Positions 23,958 through 64,000 of a DNA stretch of 64,000 nucleotides are shown here, piece by piece. The first letter of the stretch is position 1; each line of letters opens with the position of its first letter. Under the pieces are notes generated by a model. The model was not told where the DNA came from. It searched no databases and saw nothing but the letters and a program-made list of their open reading frames with translations. Source of the stretch: Lingula anatina (taxonomy: Eukaryota; Animalia; Brachiopoda); contig CM120641.1 of assembly GCA_051362555.1 (NCBI GenBank), forward strand, positions 32,928,401-32,992,400. The letters are read 5' to 3'. Both the position numbers and the translations under genes were made by a program.

Positions 23958-26740
23958 TTAGTCCACTTCTTTCCTAATTGTTTGGTCTGCATCAGGTTTT
24001 GATGTAATTGGTTGTTCAACAGCTACTTGGGTAACAGGGTTCTTTACTTCTTCCATATTATTTCCTGTGTTCTCCTGCATTTGGATGGCGGTGTTATCAG
24101 GGCTGGCTGCAGAACTTGCTAGATTACAGTTGTCCCCATGGATCTCTTTGATGGCTTGCTTTGTGGGAGGATAGCCTGGGTTTTGGCGAGGATGGCTTAC
24201 AGCTTCTGGGCCCTGACTGCTTTCCTGTTCACTCAACTGTCGCACAGCATGTTTAGGTGGTGGATATGCTGGGTTAGTAGATGTGGGCACTGCCAGCCCT
24301 TCAGTAGACGGATCATCAGTAGTATCTACACCTGCCAGCTTGCCTGAAGGTAAGTTGGATGCTGACTGCTGGGCATCCAACTGAGAAGATTCTCCCTCTG
24401 CACTCCTGATATTTTTCTGCAGATTCTGAATATCACTTTTTGATAAGGGTTGCTCTGTGTTTTCCATTCCTATACCAGCATCCTCTCCTCTGTTGTCCCC
24501 ACAGATCTCTTTGATGGCTTGCTTTGTGGGAGGATAACCTGGGTTTTGGTGAGGATGGTTTACAGCTTCTGGACCTTGACTGCTTTCCTGTTCACTCAAC
24601 TGTCGCACAGCACGTTTAGGTGGTGGATATGCTGGGTTAGTGACTGTGGGCATTGCCAGCTCTCCAGATGATGGACCAGGGGTAGCTTCCCCACCAGGTA
24701 ACTCACCTGAAGGTAACTGAGATCCAAGCTGCAGGGAGGCCAGTTGAGGAGTTACACTCTTCCCAATTTCATTATCACTTTCAGGTGAAGGTTTCTCTGT
24801 GTTTTCAACCCCATGTATCTCAGCTCCTTTACGCAATTCAGTTAGGTCATCTGTTCTTGGAGATCCTGTGTCTGATGTTCCAACTTTTTCCAAGCCTTCT
24901 GACTCCTCTACAGAGAGACCAAGCTTGCGCTGCTTACGATCACGATCATTTTTCTGGCTTAAGACAGCATCTCCGACTAATGTAGCAGAATTTGCCTAGA
25001 AAAATATTTCATTTTTACAGACATATTTTGGGAGAATTTAAGGACTAAAGTGACTAAAATTTCTGAAGAATTGTATTGTTATATAAGAAGACTAATACTT
25101 CCAAGAAAATATATTATCAAAGAACAAGTTGGTGAATTTAATGAAAAAAAAAAAAACAACAAAATACAGTAATGTTACCTCCTCTCCTCCCCCTTCTTGT
25201 TCCTCTGAAATTGCAAAAGAAAAAAAATGTAAATTAAATGTCTTAGATTGCATCTTTATCAATGTTAAGACAAACTAACAGCGTATTATTATCATGTTTA
25301 ATGTAAAAATACCTGTAACTTACCTATATCTATAGACAATGTGACACTTAATGTCTTCTTTTTGGTTCCATCATCACAAGATTTCTCCTGAAATAAATAT
25401 TTCAGTTTTGATGAAATTCTTATAAATTGGTAATATAGCTCTGATAAATTCCGAATCTGAAATGATTGTACTTGCCCTTGACATTGTCAAGATTTTCATT
25501 TTGATTCTTGCAGAGTACAACACAGGTCAATGAAACAAATTGCTGTTTCCCTTTCAGTACAAATATGCTACTTTATCAAAAATGGAAACATTTTTTTGGA
25601 TGACCCTATAATGCAACAAAATATATCAAACTATTATAGATGATAATGAGTGACTAAAAATAAAGAACAGTTATTCTTACTACTCACAGTTACTAGTATG
25701 ATAAACTTAAAAAGTAATTCACCTGGTACTTTTCCAGCTCATTCACTGATATTTCAGTTGGTAGCATAGTTTCCATGTCTATTGCCAGGCATTTAAGAAA
25801 AAGGTCTTGGGGATGAGGGTAATTGGCATCTTTTCTCAGTTTGGCATAGTAAATGGACTTGAAAGCTTCCTTCCACTCTTCTTTGGGAATTGAGGAGCTC
25901 TTGATGCAAAGTTTGTCTCTTTTATCAGCAAAAACAAATTTCAGAGATAGCGTGCCAGGTTCTGATACTCCAAACTAGCAAAAAGATAAGGTTCAGTAAA
26001 ACACTATTGCTGTGATAAACTATGTGCTGACATTTATTGTACAATACTGGTATTAATGTTTCACTGTGGTAGCATACAGACTCAAACCTAGAGGTTGTTA
26101 TATTACTGTGAAATCTACATAAGAGATATAATTTTTCTACACTCTAGAGGGCTTTGCTGTTAAATGTTTTGGAAGATACATTATCTTTTTGTAATTTTTT
26201 TCCATCTCAAGCCTTATACAAACCTGAAAGAAAAAAGTTCCTACTTCACGAGGTGGAAGCTCCAGAAAATGAACTAAGATCTTTTTCCCTTTTACTACAG
26301 GAAAATTCTGCAATTTAATATATATGATAATCTTATAGTTGGATAAATCTATAAAATGATTTATCATCTCTGAAAGGGGAAATTCTAACATTTTGAAACA
26401 ATCACACTTATCAAACTTATGAAAAATTTATGCATAATAATAAAAATACTTGAACAATATTGGAACATACATACTATACACTGTAAATGCACTGAGAAAG
26501 TAGCTGAAAATGTTAATTGTTACCTCAGTCTTCATCGACTGTAACAGTTTGCCTGTTTCTTCAAGATAGTGTTGAAACTGTTGAGGCTGGTTGTTGAATC
26601 TTTCACAACAAATTTGAAGAAGTTGACAGCTTATCCATTGATGAGAGAGATGATTGAATTGTTGTGAGAAGTTTTCTTGGAAATGTTTTATGTGTTCCTG
26701 GCAAATAATATGTAAAATATATGAAGGTTTTAAATATTTG

Positions 26741-40924: not shown

Positions 40925-41390
40925 TCCCCACCTGACACCCCTCCAGAGGAATGGACTCGACCCACCTGAAGCCCCTCCAAGAAATGGACTTGCCCTACCT
41001 GACGCCCCTCCAAGGAGATGGACTCGCCCCACCTGACACCCCTCCAAGAAATGGACTTGCCCTACCTGACGCCCCTCCAAGGAGATAGACTCGCCCCACC
41101 TGACACCCCTCCAAGAAAATGGACTCAGCCCACCTGACACCCCTCCAAAGGAATGGACTCACCCCACCTGACACCCCTTCAAGGGAATGGACTCACCCCA
41201 CCTGACGCCCCCTTCCAAGGGAATGGACTAGCCCCACCTGACGCCCCTCCAAGGGAATGGACTAGCCCCACTTGACCCCCCCCTCCAAGGGAATGGACTC
41301 GCCCCACCTGACACCCCCCTCCATTGGAATGGATTAGCCCCACCTGACACCCCTCCAAGGAATGGACTAGCCCCAATTGACATCCCTCCT
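40925..41390. repeat. GC-rich minisatellite, ~35-38-bp unit, about a dozen copies
   Basis: Head-to-tail CCCCACCTGAC[A/G]CCCCTCCAAGG(G)AATGGACT[C/A]G units with no unique spacers. Confidence 0.95.
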
Positions 41391-55800: not shown

Positions 55801-57031
55801 ACTTAACATTGAGCATTTTGTTTCATTGCGCTGGTAGATTTTGTGAGGTCATGTTCATCTACTTGCCGTTCTTCGCAGTGTTTGCATAGCAGGGAGGATT
55901 TACATTAAGGTTTAGTAATGTATACGCAGCGACGGCAGAAACAAAGCTTAGAAGTCAATGGCATTCCCACAAGTTTCGTTGGGAAATCATTAACAAATTA
56001 GAGCTAAGGCATACGAGAGAAAGAGAGAGAAACTGTGGCAGTAGGCCGTTTGCGTGCGTTTTAGTCGGACGACAGCATGGCGATGCTTTCAAGAGTTGCA
56101 ATCAACGGATAAATCACATAACAGCGAATTAGAGAACTGGAAATGCCGACCATCTTTGCATGGTCAGAATGTTGCTGTTCAACAACACTATACCGGGAAA
56201 CAACAGACCAACATCGGACAATTTAAGCATTATGACATCGCTTGGTCGGGGAAACCAGCGCAGTGATTTTGCTGTGGAAAGTTTGTTGAATGAAAACCGT
56301 AAGTAGGCTACAAATGATGCTTTTTCCAATGAGTAGGCCTATGTAGGCCTATCACTTTGCGGAATCTCACTCTAAAAATAAGGATGACAGGGAGCGTTTT
56401 TCCGGATACCGCCTCTTCTGTTTACGGTTGTATTTAGAAAACAACACTTTTGTTTCTTTGATTTTTTTGTGAAGATTGCTATTACAAGTTTAAGGGGTTT
56501 GGCAATGTGTAGGGCTTACGCTCCCTGCCCCCCCCCCCCCCTTCTTGTTCAAATGGTTGACCCACAAGGCAGTGCCACTTATTCTAGATCATTTAACGGT
56601 GTGATATTTTAGAATGCTTAAAAGGTGTCTTTAGAACGATGTTTTTTTTTACGAAATTAATTATAGGTCACTCTCTATATATTTTCTAGACGTAAGCAGT
56701 AAACGAATTTTGAATCTTTACACTACTACTACTTTTTTTGTTTTATTGTTAGTACTCTTTATGTATGACTTATCGATATTTAACACTGGTGTATTGTAGT
56801 GAACTGTTTGGGACGTGGATTATAAAATCACTTAAAATATCAACACATAACGGCATAAGCATTTAAATTGCCTTTAAAACTACAAACAATTCCTGGGGAT
56901 TGGGCCTAGGCCTATGGCATAAATTCGCGCAAAAGTAACGCCATTTAATATGTTTTACTTTATTTTTTTATTTTTTTTTTTTTAAACAGATTTATTTCTA
57001 CAATCAAGATATACAAAAAAATACATTCAGA

Positions 57032-57070
57032 GCAGGCGGCACGTCGCCACAGCATTATGGGCTCGCCTGC
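57032..57070 (-). other. LINE 3'-terminal stem-loop
   Basis: GCAGGCG ... CGCCTGC 7-bp stem just upstream of the poly(A) signal, the usual position of the RT-recognition hairpin in L2/CR1 elements. Confidence 0.65.
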
Positions 57071-57278
57071 GTTAATGTAATTCTAGTAACAAAATGACTT
57101 GATTATGATTATATATAGGTAATGATAATAGTTATGATAACACTAAATAGTACTTATTGTTGTGAAGGAGAGCAACAGGGAAGGGCACTACAGGGAAAGG
57201 CACGGGCGATATATGCGGGAAGTGATATATTAGTTGATCAAGAGAAGGAGGGTCGGGAGGGTGAACTTATAAAAGCAA

Positions 57279-60200
57279 TTAAGCATTATCAATTAAAAAC
57301 GTCGAGACAATATCGAATATTTTATCATTCTGTCCAGTTGTTAAAGTTTTGTGGCCGTGTAGAAACAAAGAAATCTTATCAAGCTGCGTTCTAAAATTTG
57401 TATTGTTAGCGCCCAGGACATTCTGAATAGACAAATGAAAATCACGATACTTCAACTGCCTCCGTGGGCACTGGAAGAAAAAATGGCGTATAGTCTCAGG
57501 TTTCCCACAAGAGCAGTTCGGAGAATTTACCGAGTCCCAGTTGTGGTTATATAATTGGGATTTGAACAATAGATCTACACGCGCACGGTTTAGATATTTT
57601 TCATTCTTTCTTTCTAACTTTAGGGTGGTAGTAGATAACGAACCAGAAAATAGTTCGGATTTCAGAGAATGCTTGAATAACGCGATATTTGGGGTATACT
57701 TTTGTTCGAGACTGAGACTATTCCATGAAGACACGAGTAAGTATTCAGGACCCTGAAATGTAAACTTAGCTGGGATGATGTAATCTCTATACGAGGACTC
57801 TCTTGTTTGCGGGGTTATTAGATTTTTAAAAGACAGGAAATCTTTAATAATATATGTAGGAGCCATATTGTGATAGATAGTGAACATAACCTTTTTTGCA
57901 TGCATTATTCTACGGTTTTCCAAAGTAGCCCAGTTCAGCTCTCTAAGCACTTTGATTGTGTTCGAACCGGGCAGAGCACCTAAAACAAGCAGACCAGCTT
58001 GATAGTGAATAGAAGAAAGTTTGGAAAGATTCCTTTTAGTTGCTGAGTGATATAGGATGTCGCAGTAATCAAGCAGAGACAGAACGTAAGCGTTATATAG
58101 TATATTCAAGTGCCTAGATCTGAGCCTGTGGGACAGGGACTTAAGAGGATTCAGGGCCTTTTGGGCCTTAGTAGCTAGATAACTTATATGCTCGGCACAA
58201 GACAGTTTTGAATCTAGTACGAATCCGAGATGTTTGTGGAATGATTTCCGGGGTATCGTTAAATCACATAATATTAGATTTCTGTATTTATTCGCTGTAA
58301 CCTTAGTAGAGAATATAACCTCACAACTCTTATTGGGTTTGAACTCCAGTTTCCATCTGTTAGACCATTCCTCGAGCTTTGAGAGGTCGGATTGAAGTGC
58401 ATCGTGCGACTGGCTGTCAGAAGGAATAGAAGATTGAAAAATAGACGTGTCGTCAGCATATAGAAAACAATCTGAAGAAAGGTTGTCTGCTAAATCATTT
58501 ATATATAAAAGAAAAAGAAGAGGACCGAGAATGCTGCCTTGTGGAACACTAGTGTTGATGTAAGATTCGTTGGAAGATTCAGATAACGTGCCGTTGATAC
58601 GGACTTTAACTTTTCTATCGCTCAAATAAGAGGATAATAGTGACAGTAGGTTACCTTTAATACCATAGGCTGACAGCTTGATTAATAGTAAACTATGCGG
58701 AACTTTATCAAAAGCGGCTGAAATATCAAGAAATATTCCTCTTACATCTCGGCCCTTTCTAAAGTTAGATCTAATCAAATTTTGAATTGCCAGTAATTGG
58801 TGTTCAGTGCTATGACCCTTAAGAAACCCGGATTGTTTTTCAAACAATAAATTATTGTTAACGACATGATTAATCATCCTTTTATAAATAATTTTTTCCA
58901 AAAGTTTTGATAAGACGCTCAAAAGTGACACTGGTCTATAGTTAATTATGCAACTTCTGTCACCTTTCTTATAAATCGGGCAAATAAACGCCATTTTCCA
59001 CAGGTCAGGGTAGGTGTTAGATTGAATAATATAATTAAATAAAATACATAATGGTTTCACAACAACATCTTTGCTTAGTTTTAACATTTTTATCGTCACC
59101 GAGTCCGGACCACTTGCCTTAGATGCATCCATATCATCGATTATTACTTTGATCTCAGTGTCATTAAAATCAATTTCTGACAAAATTGCATTTGTTTTAT
59201 CAGGGAAGTTAACTAATGCTGTGGAAGTCACTACATCGGAATGATACCTTTCTGAAAAATAATCTAGGAATACTTTGGCCTTCTCTGAATCCGTAATCGC
59301 AATTTGGCCAGTCGAATGGTTTAAAAGGGTTGGAATTGACGTAATGTATTTTGAACCGATAAGGTTTTTAATAGTCGGCCAAAATAATTTACGACCATTG
59401 CCAGGTTTTTCATCAAGGCTTTCAATTAAGCTATTAAAGTAGGATTCCTTCGTATCCCTTATAAGTTCCTTAACAAGCACAGACTGAGTATCATAACAGA
59501 GTATATTGCCCGGAGTAGGATTGGTTTTCATTTTAGCATAAAGTTTCTTTTTTTTATTTATTTCATGTTTTAGTCTATCAGAAAACCAAGGTTTATCATT
59601 CCTTTTAATAATTCTTACTTTTTGCGGAATATGCTTTTTAAAGATAAGGAGTAATCTTTCAGTAAAATTTCTAGTCATTTCGTGTATATTATTTTGAGAT
59701 TGAAAAAAGGTATCCCAATCAAAGCTTATAATATCATTGTTTAGACCATGAATATTAGCTTGATCATATTTCCAGATTATTTTCTTATATGGCTTATATT
59801 TAAGCAGAAAAACATCAAATGAGGACACGAGAGTGCTATGATCGGTCGATCCAATGGGAGCCTCAACTGACACATTTGTAACCAACCCTGGGATATCAGT
59901 AACTGTCAAGTCAATGCACGAGGATGAATCACCTTGTATTCTGGTTGGTTCTCTTACTAGCTGGTCCAGACCATGGGTTGAGAACAGATCATGTAGCAAT
60001 TCACCTGCAACATCATCCCTTCCACCCAGGTACCAGTTCCGTGAGTGGGCGTTAAAGTCCCCGTTGATGATTATTCCGTCAGGTCTGGATAATTTAGCTC
60101 TATAGAGACAATCAGATAATTGACTTATAAATTGGTTTCTTTCATTTGCAGTTTGGCTTGGAGATCTGTAAAAAATACCATACAGAAGCTTTTTATATTT

Positions 60201-60962
60201 AAGCTGTAATTCAATCCAAAGGCAATCCAACTCCGTGTTACACAAGTCCTCTCTTATTTTATATATCATGTCATTTCCCACATAAATTATAAAGCCACGT
60301 CCCTTTTCCGAGTATAAAGGATTATGATAGCCATCGATGTAATATTTACTAGTCAGATAATGCTCAGGAATTTTCCCCGCTTCACACAGACCGATTATAT
60401 AAATTTCCAATTGTTTAGCGCGAATGGATAGAGCGTCAAACCTTAGCCCGTTTTCGGCCCCAAGGCTACGTATATTCGAAAAAAGTATTTTTAAGTCATT
60501 TTCAGGTTTAAGCCTAGGCCCTGGGTTGGGATGTACGTCACCGGCGAGAAGAAGTTTGAATCCTGACAGACTTATATATTGAAATGTCGACGTCGTTTGG
60601 AAGAGAGTTAAATAAAATGCAAGTAGTTCAGCCGCAATAAGTATATAGGTTTTCACATAATATGATTTAGCGAATAATTGCGATATGCAACAAAGTAACA
60701 GTAGTGAGGACAGATTGCCGCCAGCGACACACGCAAAGGAGAATGGAGTAACCGGCCGATCTTTATGATCTTGGGTTACACTTATAGGATATACCAAGTA
60801 AAGGCACAAAGTTACAATGATAAAGAGGAAGATGAGAGCTGTTAACGGTTTCATATAAATTAAATAAGGGAACTTAAGGTGTGTTTCCCTTTTCTTAGCC
60901 ATACCTTTGAGACAGCAGAAACAACCAACCGTCACCCTCCACTGCATCAAGCTAATCCCCAT
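57279..60962 (-). CDS. LINE ORF2: hydrophobic leader - 2A-like peptide - AP endonuclease - reverse transcriptase - C-terminal Cys/His motif (1227 aa)
   Basis: NIRSL, GDFNAH, TDH (APE); YRPVSLLS, FLDISAAFDKV, VPQGSILGPLLF, YADDT (RT); CSCGKPETIRHFFFQC. Confidence 0.97.
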   Translation of the reverse strand: MGISLMQWRVTVGCFCCLKGMAKKRETHLKFPYLIYMKPLTALIFLFIIVTLCLYLVYPISVTQDHKDRPVTPFSFACVAGGNLSSLLLLCCISQLFAKSYYVKTYILIAAELLAFYLTLFQTTSTFQYISLSGFKLLLAGDVHPNPGPRLKPENDLKILFSNIRSLGAENGLRFDALSIRAKQLEIYIIGLCEAGKIPEHYLTSKYYIDGYHNPLYSEKGRGFIIYVGNDMIYKIREDLCNTELDCLWIELQLKYKKLLYGIFYRSPSQTANERNQFISQLSDCLYRAKLSRPDGIIINGDFNAHSRNWYLGGRDDVAGELLHDLFSTHGLDQLVREPTRIQGDSSSCIDLTVTDIPGLVTNVSVEAPIGSTDHSTLVSSFDVFLLKYKPYKKIIWKYDQANIHGLNNDIISFDWDTFFQSQNNIHEMTRNFTERLLLIFKKHIPQKVRIIKRNDKPWFSDRLKHEINKKKKLYAKMKTNPTPGNILCYDTQSVLVKELIRDTKESYFNSLIESLDEKPGNGRKLFWPTIKNLIGSKYITSIPTLLNHSTGQIAITDSEKAKVFLDYFSERYHSDVVTSTALVNFPDKTNAILSEIDFNDTEIKVIIDDMDASKASGPDSVTIKMLKLSKDVVVKPLCILFNYIIQSNTYPDLWKMAFICPIYKKGDRSCIINYRPVSLLSVLSKLLEKIIYKRMINHVVNNNLLFEKQSGFLKGHSTEHQLLAIQNLIRSNFRKGRDVRGIFLDISAAFDKVPHSLLLIKLSAYGIKGNLLSLLSSYLSDRKVKVRINGTLSESSNESYINTSVPQGSILGPLLFLLYINDLADNLSSDCFLYADDTSIFQSSIPSDSQSHDALQSDLSKLEEWSNRWKLEFKPNKSCEVIFSTKVTANKYRNLILCDLTIPRKSFHKHLGFVLDSKLSCAEHISYLATKAQKALNPLKSLSHRLRSRHLNILYNAYVLSLLDYCDILYHSATKRNLSKLSSIHYQAGLLVLGALPGSNTIKVLRELNWATLENRRIMHAKKVMFTIYHNMAPTYIIKDFLSFKNLITPQTRESSYRDYIIPAKFTFQGPEYLLVSSWNSLSLEQKYTPNIALFKHSLKSELFSGSLSTTTLKLERKNEKYLNRARVDLLFKSQLYNHNWDSVNSPNCSCGKPETIRHFFFQCPRRQLKYRDFHLSIQNVLGANNTNFRTQLDKISLFLHGHKTLTTGQNDKIFDIVSTFLIDNA

Positions 60963-61798
60963 TTAGATGGTACACCTCCCACGATACATCCCCCCTGATC
61001 CCCATGCCAAGTCCCTCCTCCGGCTCCCCTTCACAACATATAAAACAGTTAAAGAACATGATTATATAAATGGGAAAGAACAAAACAGAATAGATAATAC
61101 TCTTGACAGGTCGTATAGTGTAGATTGAGATGGCACGGTGAAAAGAAAAGGCAAGGTTTGGGATGGCTTCGGAATTAAATACGGCTGTAAGTTTTCTACC
61201 AATCTCCATTAGTAAGGTCATTGATGTGCAAGGCTTGCATGTGCTTACTTATGTCATCTGGACCAGTTATTGATTACTATTTCGTCCATCATAAAACAGA
61301 TAATGGTCATCAGAAGTTGATAACAGTAAGTCATCCATCTTAACCATCGTTTGGTGTCTCATCCATTATGAACCAGGTATCGTGTAATTAAATTGACATT
61401 TTTCTAGTTACACACCAGCTTAAATATGCATTTATCCATTGATTAATAGAGACATGACTCTAAAACCTACGTAAAATCAAACTAAAGCTCATCGAGGATT
61501 ATCACCAATAAATGTTTGGTCAGTTACACCTCAGATTAAAATTTAGTATTTTCTGACTGGCTATATAGAGAGACAACTCCATAGTTACATTCTCCATGTG
61601 GTAACAAGATAACCGACCAGTCGTGTAGATGTTTACATGCTTGACTAAAAAGATGTGATATAGCTGACTAACTTGGCTGTTCTTTAGTGACAAATGGAAG
61701 CACACAAGCTTGACTAAGTAGTGATGTTGTATAGCTAGCTACGTTGACTGTTGTTCAGTGGCAAATTGAAAGCACACAAAAAACTGCACGACGGCTAC

Positions 61799-62614
61799 TC
61801 ACACCACTTGCTTGCGTGGTTTACGAATTACGGGTGGTTTGGCAGGGGCATTTTCCATGTCGGTGATAATATTGTCAATGTCGTCAGTTACTTGGAAGAC
61901 ACGAATGACTCCGTTTTTGGTTTTCCCAAGAATTTTCCCTCTGTCTGACCAACAATTAGAGATCGAACCGTGATCCGTCAGTCTTCTTAAAAGACCACGA
62001 TTCATTGGGCTTAAATCTTCATAGACACGGATCCCGGTCCCTTTCAACAGAAATCTATTTCCAATAAAGTCATCACGGACAGCTTTAGACTTCAGCCTAA
62101 TTATAATTTGGCTTTGATCTGCCCTCTTATGTTGAGGTAGCCTATGCGCCGTTTCTATATCATCGCTGACAAGTTTTGGATGAATCGGTGTGTCAGATAA
62201 AGTTTTCACCAAGCTGGAGATGCAATGCTTCACATTGAAAGGCTCTTTTTTCTCCATTTCACTTAAGGGGACCCCGGAAAATCTTAGCTGTAAGCGTCTC
62301 GAATACTGAGAGTTCTGATTAGCAAGAAGTGTTACTTGATTTAGATCCTCTTTTATTTTCAGATTTTCTGCTCGTAACAAGCTAAGTTCGTCCTGCAGCT
62401 CCGCATTAATTTCGGCAAGCTCGGATTTGATGGGAGCTATTTTAGATGTAATGGCCTCATTTATTGCCGCTCGAATTTTCACATCGACAGATTTCATTTT
62501 CTCATCCAAATGTTTCTCGAAATCAGTGAGCATGTCTTTCATACGTGATTCAAACTGGCTTAGAAAGTTAAGAAGATTCGGGTCGGGATCATTAGAAAAG
62601 GCATCAGAAGACAC
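61799..62614 (-). CDS. LINE ORF1 (coiled coil plus RRM-like/CTD nucleic-acid chaperone); opens at GTG, first ATG ~62541
   Basis: Heptad-rich N-terminal half, then QYSRRLQLRFSGVP, DIETAHRL, IIIRL, IRVYEDLS, CWSDRGKI typical of CR1/L2 ORF1p. Confidence 0.88.
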   Translation of the reverse strand: MSSDAFSNDPDPNLLNFLSQFESRMKDMLTDFEKHLDEKMKSVDVKIRAAINEAITSKIAPIKSELAEINAELQDELSLLRAENLKIKEDLNQVTLLANQNSQYSRRLQLRFSGVPLSEMEKKEPFNVKHCISSLVKTLSDTPIHPKLVSDDIETAHRLPQHKRADQSQIIIRLKSKAVRDDFIGNRFLLKGTGIRVYEDLSPMNRGLLRRLTDHGSISNCWSDRGKILGKTKNGVIRVFQVTDDIDNIITDMENAPAKPPVIRKPRKQVV

Positions 62615-64000
62615 GTTTTACTTTATGAAGAATGAAAAGACATTAAAAGCACTAAGTTAGAATCAAATGAGTCCCGTTTAGAATGTGCAAAGGGGTTAAT
62701 TGGCATTAGGCTTTTTTTCTGATGAAAACCCAAAGGGCCTTTTGTCCAGGGTCTATAGGGCCTAATTTCTTTCTAGTGAGCCTTCTCCAAATTTTTAAAT
62801 TAAATTAATCAATTTGCTATAGTTGTCATTTTAATTGATCTAGGGGATAAATAAAGCACAGTTCTTTGGTAATACTTTCGGTTCTTTGAGTTCCATAAAC
62901 AGTTGCTTGGGAGATTTGTGTAATAAAACCCTGGGTCTTTATTCAAGCAAAGCGTAACTTATAGTTCCACGTCTCATTTATCGTTATCACAAAAGGGTTT
63001 CGTACTTACGGCGCAAATGATACAAAAACCGCACAAACAACACCGAGTTTGTCTTCCGCACGGTCTACTTAATCAAACAAACTAAAATGTACCATGCAGA
63101 ATCACTTTACTTCTCACCACCCGCTCTTTGTGTACAATCACTATGGTAACTTATTGTCCCCATTGAGGCTTTACCGCAGCGCACGTCCTACATTGTACTA
63201 AACATCGTACGCATTAAAGTAGGCCTCATGTAAAATATGTAAAAATAAAAATAAAACCAAGATTACGTCCAACGTTACATCTCCATGTCATATCAAATTG
63301 GAAATTCGTTTCTATTTGATAATTTGTTGTCAAAATGAGCGGCTATGAAATTTGAGCAAGCGCTATGATATCCGGGTTTCCCTTCCTGCAAGTAGTTCGT
63401 GGCCCCATGTGTGATAATCCTTTGAGATAAACAACGTCAGATAACGTCAGGATACCTCTGAAAATCTTCAGTGTATGTCCTCTTGTGGGCGTTACTTAGA
63501 TGTCAGGGGGTTCCTAGAATGGTCACTTTAAAGCTGGGCAGATGAACCTTGTAATGCAGAGTAAGTATGCATTTGAGAATCAGGGGATATTTGACTTTCG
63601 ACTGAGGTCTCTAAGTTAAACCAAGTTTATCGGGTTCAAGATCGATTATCAGATTACAATATTCCCAGATCAATGATAGCAACAGAGGTGCATTTAGCAT
63701 TCATTAGGCCAATTAAGGACGACTCCCGTGTGTCAGAAAAGTTACGCTGTTGGAGGGAGTATGTAATGGAGCATTAAATGATGCTTCTTAAGTTATTACT
63801 AGTAATATCTCAAGGGATTTGGAATAGACTGCGCCGCTTGATTTAAAATGGTTGCAGTGAATGTATTGGTATATGGGTTGTAACGTTATTAAAACTACAG
63901 TGCAAAAATGCAGCTAGAAGAAGATATTAAATGATATACGTAACATGATCCACTTCCCAACCTTTTATGCCGATATTATCTCAGACATGTTTGCAGAGGG

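Follow-up and report, generated by a model that had tools for sequence, protein, structure and literature searches.

A CR1-like element with a long spacer upstream of ORF2

The 64-kb window analysed here, the whole stretch of Lingula anatina DNA, contains a retrotransposon in its minus strand (Table 1), and no second copy of it was found within the window. The intact ORF2, identified from its reading frame and Pfam profiles, encodes a hydrophobic N-terminal extension, a 2A-like motif, an APE endonuclease domain (PF14529) and a reverse transcriptase (RT; PF00078), in that order, and both Pfam domains score over the cut-off in this single frame. The copy ends in a poly(A) tail and is flanked by a 12 bp target-site duplication. 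Its 5' junction, at 62614, is also visible in contigs from sequencing run X4, and read depth declines toward the 5' end of the element, as expected of 5'-truncated copies. These features identify an APE-type non-LTR retrotransposon. We provisionally call it CR1-like, in line with PMC3708506; the RT tree includes no named references.

Table 1. Coordinates of features in and around the element
Feature	Position	Strand	Remarks
Target-site duplication, 12 bp	56952..56963	+	second copy at 62615-62626
Poly(A) tail	56964..56983	-	adjoins the duplication
3'-terminal stem-loop	57032..57070	-	outside the duplex; z -2.84; 2/200 shuffles equally good
3' arm	57158..57224	-	54-121 nt past ORF2 stop; ~175 nt before poly(A) tail
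ORF2	57279..60962	-	1227 aa
2A-like motif GDVHPNPGP	60516..60542	-	aa 141-149; His where Glu is usual
Weaker predicted duplex extension	60935..60956	-	with 57229-57252; past the AUG; cofold pair probabilities 0.55-1.0
Hidden ORF	60952..61221	-	89 codons from first AUG; hydrophobic stretch
ORF1-ORF2 spacer	60963..61798	-	836 nt, 25 AUGs
5' arm	60973..61038	-	purine-rich; ends 10 nt before ORF2 AUG; within last 30 codons of hidden ORF
Pyrimidine-rich tract	61039..61100	-	directly upstream of 5' arm; contains nearest in-frame AUG (61059)
ORF1	61799..62614	-	interrupted at 5' junction of this copy

The 2A-like motif lies before the APE domain, a position that fits the D(V/I)ExNPGP motif of 2A-bearing LINEs, but has His in place of Glu; any ribosome skipping is only putative. 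2A-bearing CR1 elements of marine invertebrates likewise have an APE-RT ORF2 with an N-terminal extension that ends in a 2A-like motif variable at Glu (PMC3708506, PMC3894237). However, most of those were reported without ORF1, which is present here and in four full-length relatives, where homologous ORF1 frames are 321-372 codons. In these five elements ORF1 lies 0.8-5.9 kb upstream of ORF2, and spacers in the clade contain 25-133 AUGs. A comparison of ORF1 with PDB gave no match; L1-type RNA-binding look-alikes were returned from Atlas, as a lead only.

Among the runs listed, nine contain at least half of the element's words, and none of the indexed runs listed that contain the element is RNA. 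RNA reads placed on the element numbered 20, 4 and 141, too few to show a sense full-length transcript. Rfam covariance models gave no matches over 56900-62800 at E values up to 0.1, and a search of viral contigs returned nothing useful.

Complementary arms bracket ORF2

The sequence-only reading had described the segment just before ORF2 as an imperfect inverted repeat of the 3' UTR. Both segments are where it placed them, ~3.7 kb apart on either side of ORF2. Aligned with the reverse complement of the 3' arm, the 5' arm is identical in 41/68 columns, with two good blocks flanking a poor middle. The middle of the 3' arm (57175-57203) is a 15 nt tandem duplication in which indels distinguish copies. 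As nine listed runs contain at least half of the element's words, and contigs of run X4 continue through one arm to the other without showing a joint, the inverted repeat is not an assembly artefact.

The RNAduplex energy of the arms is -86.3 kcal/mol, compared with -51.9 +/- 4.8 for dinucleotide shuffles, none of 3000 being as low, so the predicted pairing passed the shuffled control that the reading had called for. When the 3' arm was paired with 11,626 tiles of 66 nt from both strands of the window, excluding tiles that overlap the arm itself, the 5' arm was its best partner (-84.3; best unrelated tile, -59.9). The duplex is also present in the predicted minimum-energy fold of 4311 nt of element RNA, and with its predicted extension an internal loop would hold a small hairpin containing the ORF2 AUG. 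The upstream part of the spacer (in the 60963..61798 spacer of this element) folds no better than shuffles.

The comparison with the antisense orientation was less clear-cut. While the sense duplex is stronger (-86.3 versus -61.6), about half of this gap is compositional, as shuffles of the two orientations differ by 12.5 kcal/mol. Cofolding larger zones gave a gain of -56.4 for sense and -50.6 for antisense. The claim that differences between the arms favour G:U pairs in the element RNA held when both classes were scored alike, with 15 G:U to 3 A:C in this copy.

Complementarity is partner-specific within one clade

The arms were compared in 21 CR1-like elements forming a clade in a FastTree tree of the RT region, a set that leaves out the nearest relatives, P0003-P0011 (38-42% identity), and in 43 outside elements, six further elements, the usable ones of ten candidates, having been counted as outside without tree placement. 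Most relatives came from three assemblies; when 201 family genomes were searched, just two more had matches (best E values 1e-108 to 1e-110, weaker than those of the clade).

In 13 of the 21 clade members, an element's own 3' UTR was the top partner of its own pre-ORF2 zone, where chance predicts about one (0/100,000 permutations). Across the whole element, the best match to the 3' UTR lay directly before ORF2 in 15/21 members, with 1.5 expected by length, and mismatched 3' UTRs had their best match just before ORF2 in 57/420 pairings. Cofold energies agree: matched arms gave -21.9 and mismatched arms -11.1, and the element's own partner ranked first in 9/20 elements and in 7/13 lineage representatives (0/200,000 permutations). 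The two arm locations are constant across lineages with 36-73% RT identity, while the letters of the arms differ; between lineages the arms are unalignable and vary in length and place. No duplex was found in L005, L006 or L083, the last of which has just 133 nt of 3' flank.

Outside the clade, an element's own 3' UTR ranked first in only 4/43 cases, so the duplex belongs to this clade rather than to CR1/L2 elements at large. A general property of two-ORF LINEs was also rejected, as the same ranking was seen in only 3/29 of the outside elements that have a long upstream ORF. The high score of L076 is an artefact of poly(A) facing poly(U).

When G:U and A:C were scored symmetrically over the whole clade, 122 G:U and 49 A:C were found, where arm composition predicts 104/171 G:U (p 0.005), and the G:U share in mismatched controls was 51%. 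Between L164 and L178, 47 pairs could be followed, of which 17 were the same, 6 had changed on one side and 6 on both, 11 were broken and 7 fell in gaps, the double-sided changes being counted in structure-blind alignments. Partner-specific matching, the G:U excess and double-sided changes thus support the proposed selection on RNA pairing, as far as comparison of sequences can indicate it. From the partner specificity and double-sided changes, the complementarity is kept across the clade by what appear to be compensatory changes. Within species, pairing is kept at 4/4 variable paired sites, yet 36/45 possible transitions would keep it, which makes these variants uninformative. A-to-I editing was rejected as the origin of the G:U pairs, as it would give A to G, while in RNA terms the variants at paired sites are C to U.

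A hidden ORF ends at the ORF2 start codon

The 5' arm lies inside a short ORF, here called the hidden ORF, which the sequence-only reading had overlooked. Counted from the A of the ORF2 AUG, its UAG lies 8 nt further on. Its frame is open from 61248, with further in-frame AUGs at 61209 and 61059. An unannotated hidden ORF encloses the 5' arm in all 18 clade elements with a called arm. A Met-initiated ORF of at least 40 codons ending within 11 nt of an ORF2 AUG was found in 17/21 clade members, where it has 44-107 codons, but at only 3/164 internal Mets and in 5/43 outside elements, and shuffling the upstream sequence predicts 1.6/17. The stop-start overlaps are mostly AUGA, UAAUG or UGAUG; in L084, L088 and L089 the hidden-ORF stop overlaps GUG or AUA at the aligned position. 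Upstream of the arm, the hidden-ORF frame is open for 49 codons on average versus 22 in the other frames (p 0.003), and the nearest AUG upstream of the arm shares it in 12/17.

The hidden ORF shows weak constraint at the protein level, with 110/82/115 differences at the three codon positions (p 0.045). In one run X4 contig, at a depth of 153 out of 687, 4 nt are missing at 61063, a loss that, read by hand, ends the 89-codon ORF early but leaves a 35-codon ORF from 61059. As the hidden ORF ends at the ORF2 start and encloses the 5' arm, a role for the pairing in ORF2 translation is supported indirectly.

Comparison with known systems

In Tombusviridae, a readthrough element pairs over a distance of 3.5 kb with a site close to the 3' terminus (Cimino 2011, cited in PMC3542737). 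In both cases the pairing, predicted here, spans ~3.5 kb around the polymerase coding region and involves the place where polymerase translation is decided. However, this is a retrotransposon, with an imperfect duplex of 35-115 nt rather than a short stem-loop contact and with a stop-start junction rather than readthrough, and the function here is only predicted. The TURBS of caliciviruses and influenza B virus (PMC5972666) resemble the arrangement in having an upstream stop a few nt from the downstream start (17/21 within 11 nt here), structure tens of nt before the stop, and near-cognate starts, calicivirus reinitiation tolerating GUG or AUA (PMC5972666). In contrast to TURBS, motif 1 (UGGGA) is not conserved, occurring in 3/20 elements (at -27, -44 and -66), the partner strand is the 3' UTR, and the upstream ORF is small and internal and must first be reached.

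Among LINEs, SART1 uses UAAUG coupling and L1 reinitiates at ORF2 (PMC5972666), and megabat L1 has a 445 nt spacer whose AUGs aid retrotransposition (PMC4072516). The present clade would be like these in coupling a LINE ORF2 to an upstream stop, with spacer AUGs that matter. In SART1, by contrast, ORF1 itself is the coupling ORF, with a local structure downstream; spacers in the present clade reach 5.9 kb. The sections of PMC5972666 and PMC4072516 that we consulted do not mention 3' UTR pairing for these elements, and the words UTR and IRES are absent from the consulted main text of PMC3708506. Our literature search found no description of this arrangement of duplex and hidden ORF.

Possible role in ORF2 translation

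The clade has complementary, partner-specific arms with a G:U bias, a hidden ORF, a stop-start overlap, and spacers of 0.8-5.9 kb containing 25-133 AUGs. The reading that we tentatively prefer, at somewhat below an even chance, is that the arms pair in the RNA and bring the poly(A) end to the junction of the hidden ORF and ORF2, which is translated via internal entry followed by termination-reinitiation. The duplex would form in cells, and PABP bound to poly(A), with eIF4G and eIF3, would load 40S subunits on the U-rich tract at the hidden-ORF AUG or retain them at its stop. A ribosome translating the hidden ORF would melt the 5' arm, terminate and restart at ORF2, which would be translated inside the loop with the arms free to re-pair, so that only RNAs with an intact 3' end would make ORF2p, across a distance that scanning would not bridge. 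The duplex depends on nothing beyond an intact 3' end and the final 100-170 nt of the spacer, and so has no means of sensing the 5' end. Against this explanation, a large number of the mapped pairs are lost or displaced from one relative to another, and the arm-to-stop distance ranges from 18 to 105 nt.

It is unlikely that the duplex instead acts after translation, independently of the hidden ORF, by compacting the RNA or by keeping its 3' end close to where synthesis of ORF2p starts, for RNP assembly, cis preference or a switch from translation to reverse transcription. The 3' arm does lie past the ORF2 stop and short of the terminal stem-loop, L005 has the stop-start junction without the duplex, and long-distance pairing in tombusvirids has been proposed to couple polymerase translation with replication (PMC3542737). 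However, nascent ORF2p would end at the 3' end regardless, so a bridge to the start codon should add little cis preference, and the 5' arm falls within the hidden ORF in every element with a called arm.

We consider it rather improbable that ORF2 is translated from a shorter RNA, spliced or made from a spacer promoter, with the duplex controlling a splice acceptor or damping scanning into ORF2. The pyrimidine fraction in the 45 nt before the arm is 0.53-0.82 in nearly all clade members, YAG occurs at the arm start in 6/18 (including L084 and L089), and spacers of 5-6 kb could house a promoter. However, YAG is no more frequent there than in the background (48/191), so a splice acceptor at the arm start was rejected; the hidden-ORF frame stays open upstream of the arm; and no joint of the spliced type links ORF1 with the arm in run X4, the RNA reads being sparse.

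It is quite improbable that the duplex serves as a naturally occurring poly(A) fold-back shielding the RNA from nonsense-mediated decay after upstream ORFs terminate. Engineered 26 nt fold-backs suppress this decay in human cells, and the element RNA carries stops 4-10 kb from its tail. However, the engineered paired site was downstream of the stop, with protection fading with distance (PMC2689704), while here the arm is upstream of the hidden-ORF stop and ~0.8-5.8 kb downstream of the ORF1 stop. Neutral DNA-level origins of the inverted repeats, by template switching or gene conversion and with no RNA function, would suit arms that are unalignable between lineages, vary in length and place and are missing from some members, but are largely excluded by the two fixed locations, the strand-specific G:U excess and the double-sided changes.

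Translation of ORF2 from bicistronic LINE RNA has been described as unclear (PMC3708506), and long spacers inhibit L1 retrotransposition (PMC4072516), yet the spacers that this clade has to cross reach 5.9 kb and hold more than 100 AUGs. The duplex and the hidden ORF provide two conserved, mutable handles on how it does so. Our findings suggest that the reported loss of ORF1 from 2A-bearing CR1 elements may partly reflect an ORF1 situated several kilobases further upstream. They also suggest that constructs for expressing LINEs of such clades may require the native spacer end and the 3' UTR together. A broader proposal, which we regard as possible but doubtful, is that long-spacer LINEs carry a virus-like module of 3' UTR duplex, hidden third ORF and stop-start junction, with the poly(A) end taking the place of an IRES or TURBS. 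Such a module would explain how production of ORF2p is confined to RNAs capable of being reverse transcribed, and would have arisen more than once, in this clade and in the L047/L058 pair. In that pair, the arm is located in the end of ORF1.

The LINE in the window and its relatives

The window's LINE belongs to a young family with many copies. Contig depths summed to 367–1957 in bins within the element and to 62–82 in flanking bins. As a contig of sequencing run X4 runs on into other sequence at the 5' junction, the copy in the window is 5'-truncated. ORF2 has a hydrophobic N-terminal extension with a 2A-like motif at its end. The label 'CR1-like' is our own and follows PMC3708506 rather than named reference sequences.

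Features of the LINE in the window, with ORF1 of full-length relatives
Feature	Position	Strand	Remarks
LINE	56964-62614	-	bounded by 12 bp target-site duplication and poly(A) tail
ORF1	61799-62614	-	cut by 5' junction
Direct repeat, 48 nt	61652-61699 / 61723-61770		77% identical; directly past ORF1 stop
Hidden ORF	60952-61221	-	
5' arm	60973-61038		before ORF2
ORF2, intact	57279-60962	-	1227 aa; APE and RT domains
ORF2 leader	60540-60962	-	140 aa; two hydrophobic stretches and conserved N-terminal R-x-R/T-x-G pattern, common to relatives
3' arm	57158-57224		in 3' UTR
ORF1 of relatives	L243:494-1456; L244:398-1450; L245 and L248 (reverse strand)		full-length elements

The DNA of related elements was taken from two kinds of contig: metagenome contigs, and contigs of eukaryotic LINEs that had been binned with bacteria, in assemblies labelled Ca. 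Thiodiazotropha and Sedimenticola. Both are bivalve symbionts. In three such assemblies, G001, G002 and G003, intact eukaryotic LINE contigs number in the dozens (42, 38 and 152 matches), owing to host contamination. To 62 distinct elements with a closed ORF2 and sufficient flank, three full-length broken elements were added (L164, L228 and L235, placed in the clade by tblastn), and L183, in which the 5' part is absent, was dropped. The final set comprised 21 clade and 43 other elements. In an RT FastTree built without L018, L077 and L181, the window's element fell together with the high scorers in one 32-row group with a support of 94, under the starred level.

Pairing between the region before ORF2 and the 3' UTR

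The sequence-only reading had described the segment before ORF2 as an inverted repeat of the 3' UTR, and this was confirmed. The arms form a duplex of -86.3 kcal/mol, and none of 3000 shuffles was as low (-51.9 ± 4.8). The arm duplex is weaker in antisense (-61.6 kcal/mol; shuffles -39.4 ± 4.3), but when 261 and 311 nt segments were cofolded the gain in sense (-56.4) was only modestly better than in antisense (-50.6). In that cofold, most pairs in the two end blocks had probabilities near 1, and the helix is retained in the minimum-energy fold of a 4311 nt stretch of element RNA.

For each element, a 220 nt segment from the start of the 3' UTR was aligned for pairing with the whole element, using an ad hoc score. 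The best match lay directly before ORF2 in 15 of the 21 clade members, where 1.5 would be expected from length, and in 12 of the 43 other elements, where 3.7 would be expected. Mismatched 3' UTRs hit this zone in 57/420 and 46/462 cases, respectively. L171, a clade member scored as a miss, has the top score, with its match just within its open frame. An element's own 3' UTR was the top partner of its pre-ORF2 zone in 13 clade members (0/100,000 permutations) and in 4/43 others (p = 7e-5), one of these four being a homopolymer artefact. Because the score was ad hoc, the partner test was redone with cofold energies for those 20 members that have a stop of the hidden ORF. The energy was -21.9 for matched and -11.1 ± 6.2 for mismatched pairs, the own partner ranked first in 9/20 and in 7/13 lineage representatives (0/200,000 permutations), and sense was better than antisense in 15/20.

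The proposed bias towards G:U also held: with G:U and A:C scored alike, clade pairs contained 122 G:U and 49 A:C, versus 1493 and 1422 in mismatched pairs. Structure-blind alignments of four subfamilies revealed double-sided changes in L178/L164, L084/L089 and L155/L166, and many pairs broken or shifted as well. Own-partner matching, the G:U excess and the double-sided changes support the suggested selection on RNA pairing, and the arms very probably act as functional RNA. The duplex was not seen in all 21 clade elements; L005, L006 and L083 show none.

In L047 and L058, two elements from another branch, ORF1 ends at the ORF2 start and contains, in its last 100 nt, a match to the element's own 3' UTR, which ranks first of 49 in each. 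This junction match is possibly of independent origin.

A hidden ORF ends at the ORF2 start

In the window, the 5' arm lies in an unannotated reading frame that is open over 98 codons (89 if counted from the AUG at 61221) and stops 8 nt beyond the A of the ORF2 start codon. The two remaining frames stop there too, one at a UAA directly before the AUG and one at a UGA overlapping Met 6. A Met-initiated ORF of 44–107 codons ending ≤11 nt from an early ORF2 AUG was found in 17 of the 21 clade members, compared with 3/164 internal ORF2 Mets and 5/43 outside elements; shuffling the upstream 330 nt with the junction kept gave an expectation of 1.6/17. In 12/17, the closest AUG upstream of the arm shares the frame of the hidden ORF. 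In L084 and L089 the hidden ORF ends, at the aligned position, on a GUG or an AUA, and the ORF2 starts of L084, L088 and L089 are likely non-AUG (GUG, AUA), overlapping the hidden-ORF stop. In L171 the hidden ORF ends 14 nt upstream of a later Met; in L006 no hidden ORF ends at the ORF2 start. Wherever a 5' arm was called, in 18 members, it falls within the hidden ORF, and the inner end of the arm is 18–105 nt before the stop.

The predicted products are hydrophobic, which U-rich sequence alone may cause, and differences between codon positions point to weak constraint (p = 0.045). In the L088 alignment, apparent compensating indels keep the stop and alter the peptide. The open frame and its stop appear to be more important than the peptide itself. 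As counter-evidence, a 4 nt deletion in one X4 contig (depth 153 of 687) shortens the hidden ORF.

How ORF2 might be translated

ORF1 homologs occur in four full-length relatives (E values 6e-14 to 8e-8), where they are separated from ORF2 by 1960, 5372, 5520 and 5892 nt with 63–133 intervening AUGs; the window's spacer is 836 nt with 25 AUGs. Full-length 2A-bearing relatives are 8–12 kb long, with ORF1 2–5.9 kb upstream of ORF2. PMC3708506 and PMC3894237 report that most 2A-bearing CR1 elements are without ORF1; this may partly reflect distant ORF1s that were overlooked. Scanning from ORF1 to ORF2 appears implausible, and ORF2 would therefore need internal entry or a shorter RNA.

The reading we tentatively prefer, though it falls short of an even chance, is that ORF2 is expressed by translation of the hidden ORF and reinitiation. 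The duplex would keep the poly(A) end, approximately 175 nt from the 3' arm, next to the hidden ORF, where tail-bound factors might load a 40S or keep one in place. While translating the hidden ORF, the ribosome would melt the arm; it would then terminate at the hidden ORF's stop and reinitiate at ORF2. The sequence-only reading, which had proposed a 5'-3' bridge, was right in its observation; its interpretation is supported in part and is extended here by the hidden ORF.

The duplex could instead act in assembling the RNP or in switching to reverse transcription, which we consider unlikely. Production of ORF2 from a shorter RNA is slightly less likely again; splice acceptors were not enriched at the arm start (6/18 versus 48/191). 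Escape from decay is a still weaker candidate, and neutral repeats are very improbable.

Under the preferred reinitiation reading, the arm duplex resembles the long-distance pairing of tombusvirids (PMC3542737) joined with termination-reinitiation (PMC5972666). The clade's junction is not a TURBS, the termination-reinitiation element of caliciviruses and influenza B described in the latter; motif 1 (UGGGA) occurs in 3/20 clade members. PMC3708506, PMC3894237, PMC5972666, PMC2689704, PMC4120745, PMC4072516 and PMC3542737 served for comparison. In literature searches with little coverage of subscription journals and Repbase notes, no title or abstract opening described pairing between a LINE pre-ORF2 region and 3' UTR, or a CR1 element in which a third ORF is coupled to ORF2. 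An earlier description of the layout is possible; the supplements of PMC3708506 contain the element list.

Other observations

Run X18 contains approximately 140 RNA reads from the 3' end of a diverged subfamily (57119-57747), and many of these reads switch to other sequence at 57747; they probably represent a truncated LINE copy within a host transcript. Elsewhere, the window includes a 345-codon open frame (23958-24995, minus strand) with no Pfam match and a 34 bp minisatellite of 13.6 copies (40926-41389).
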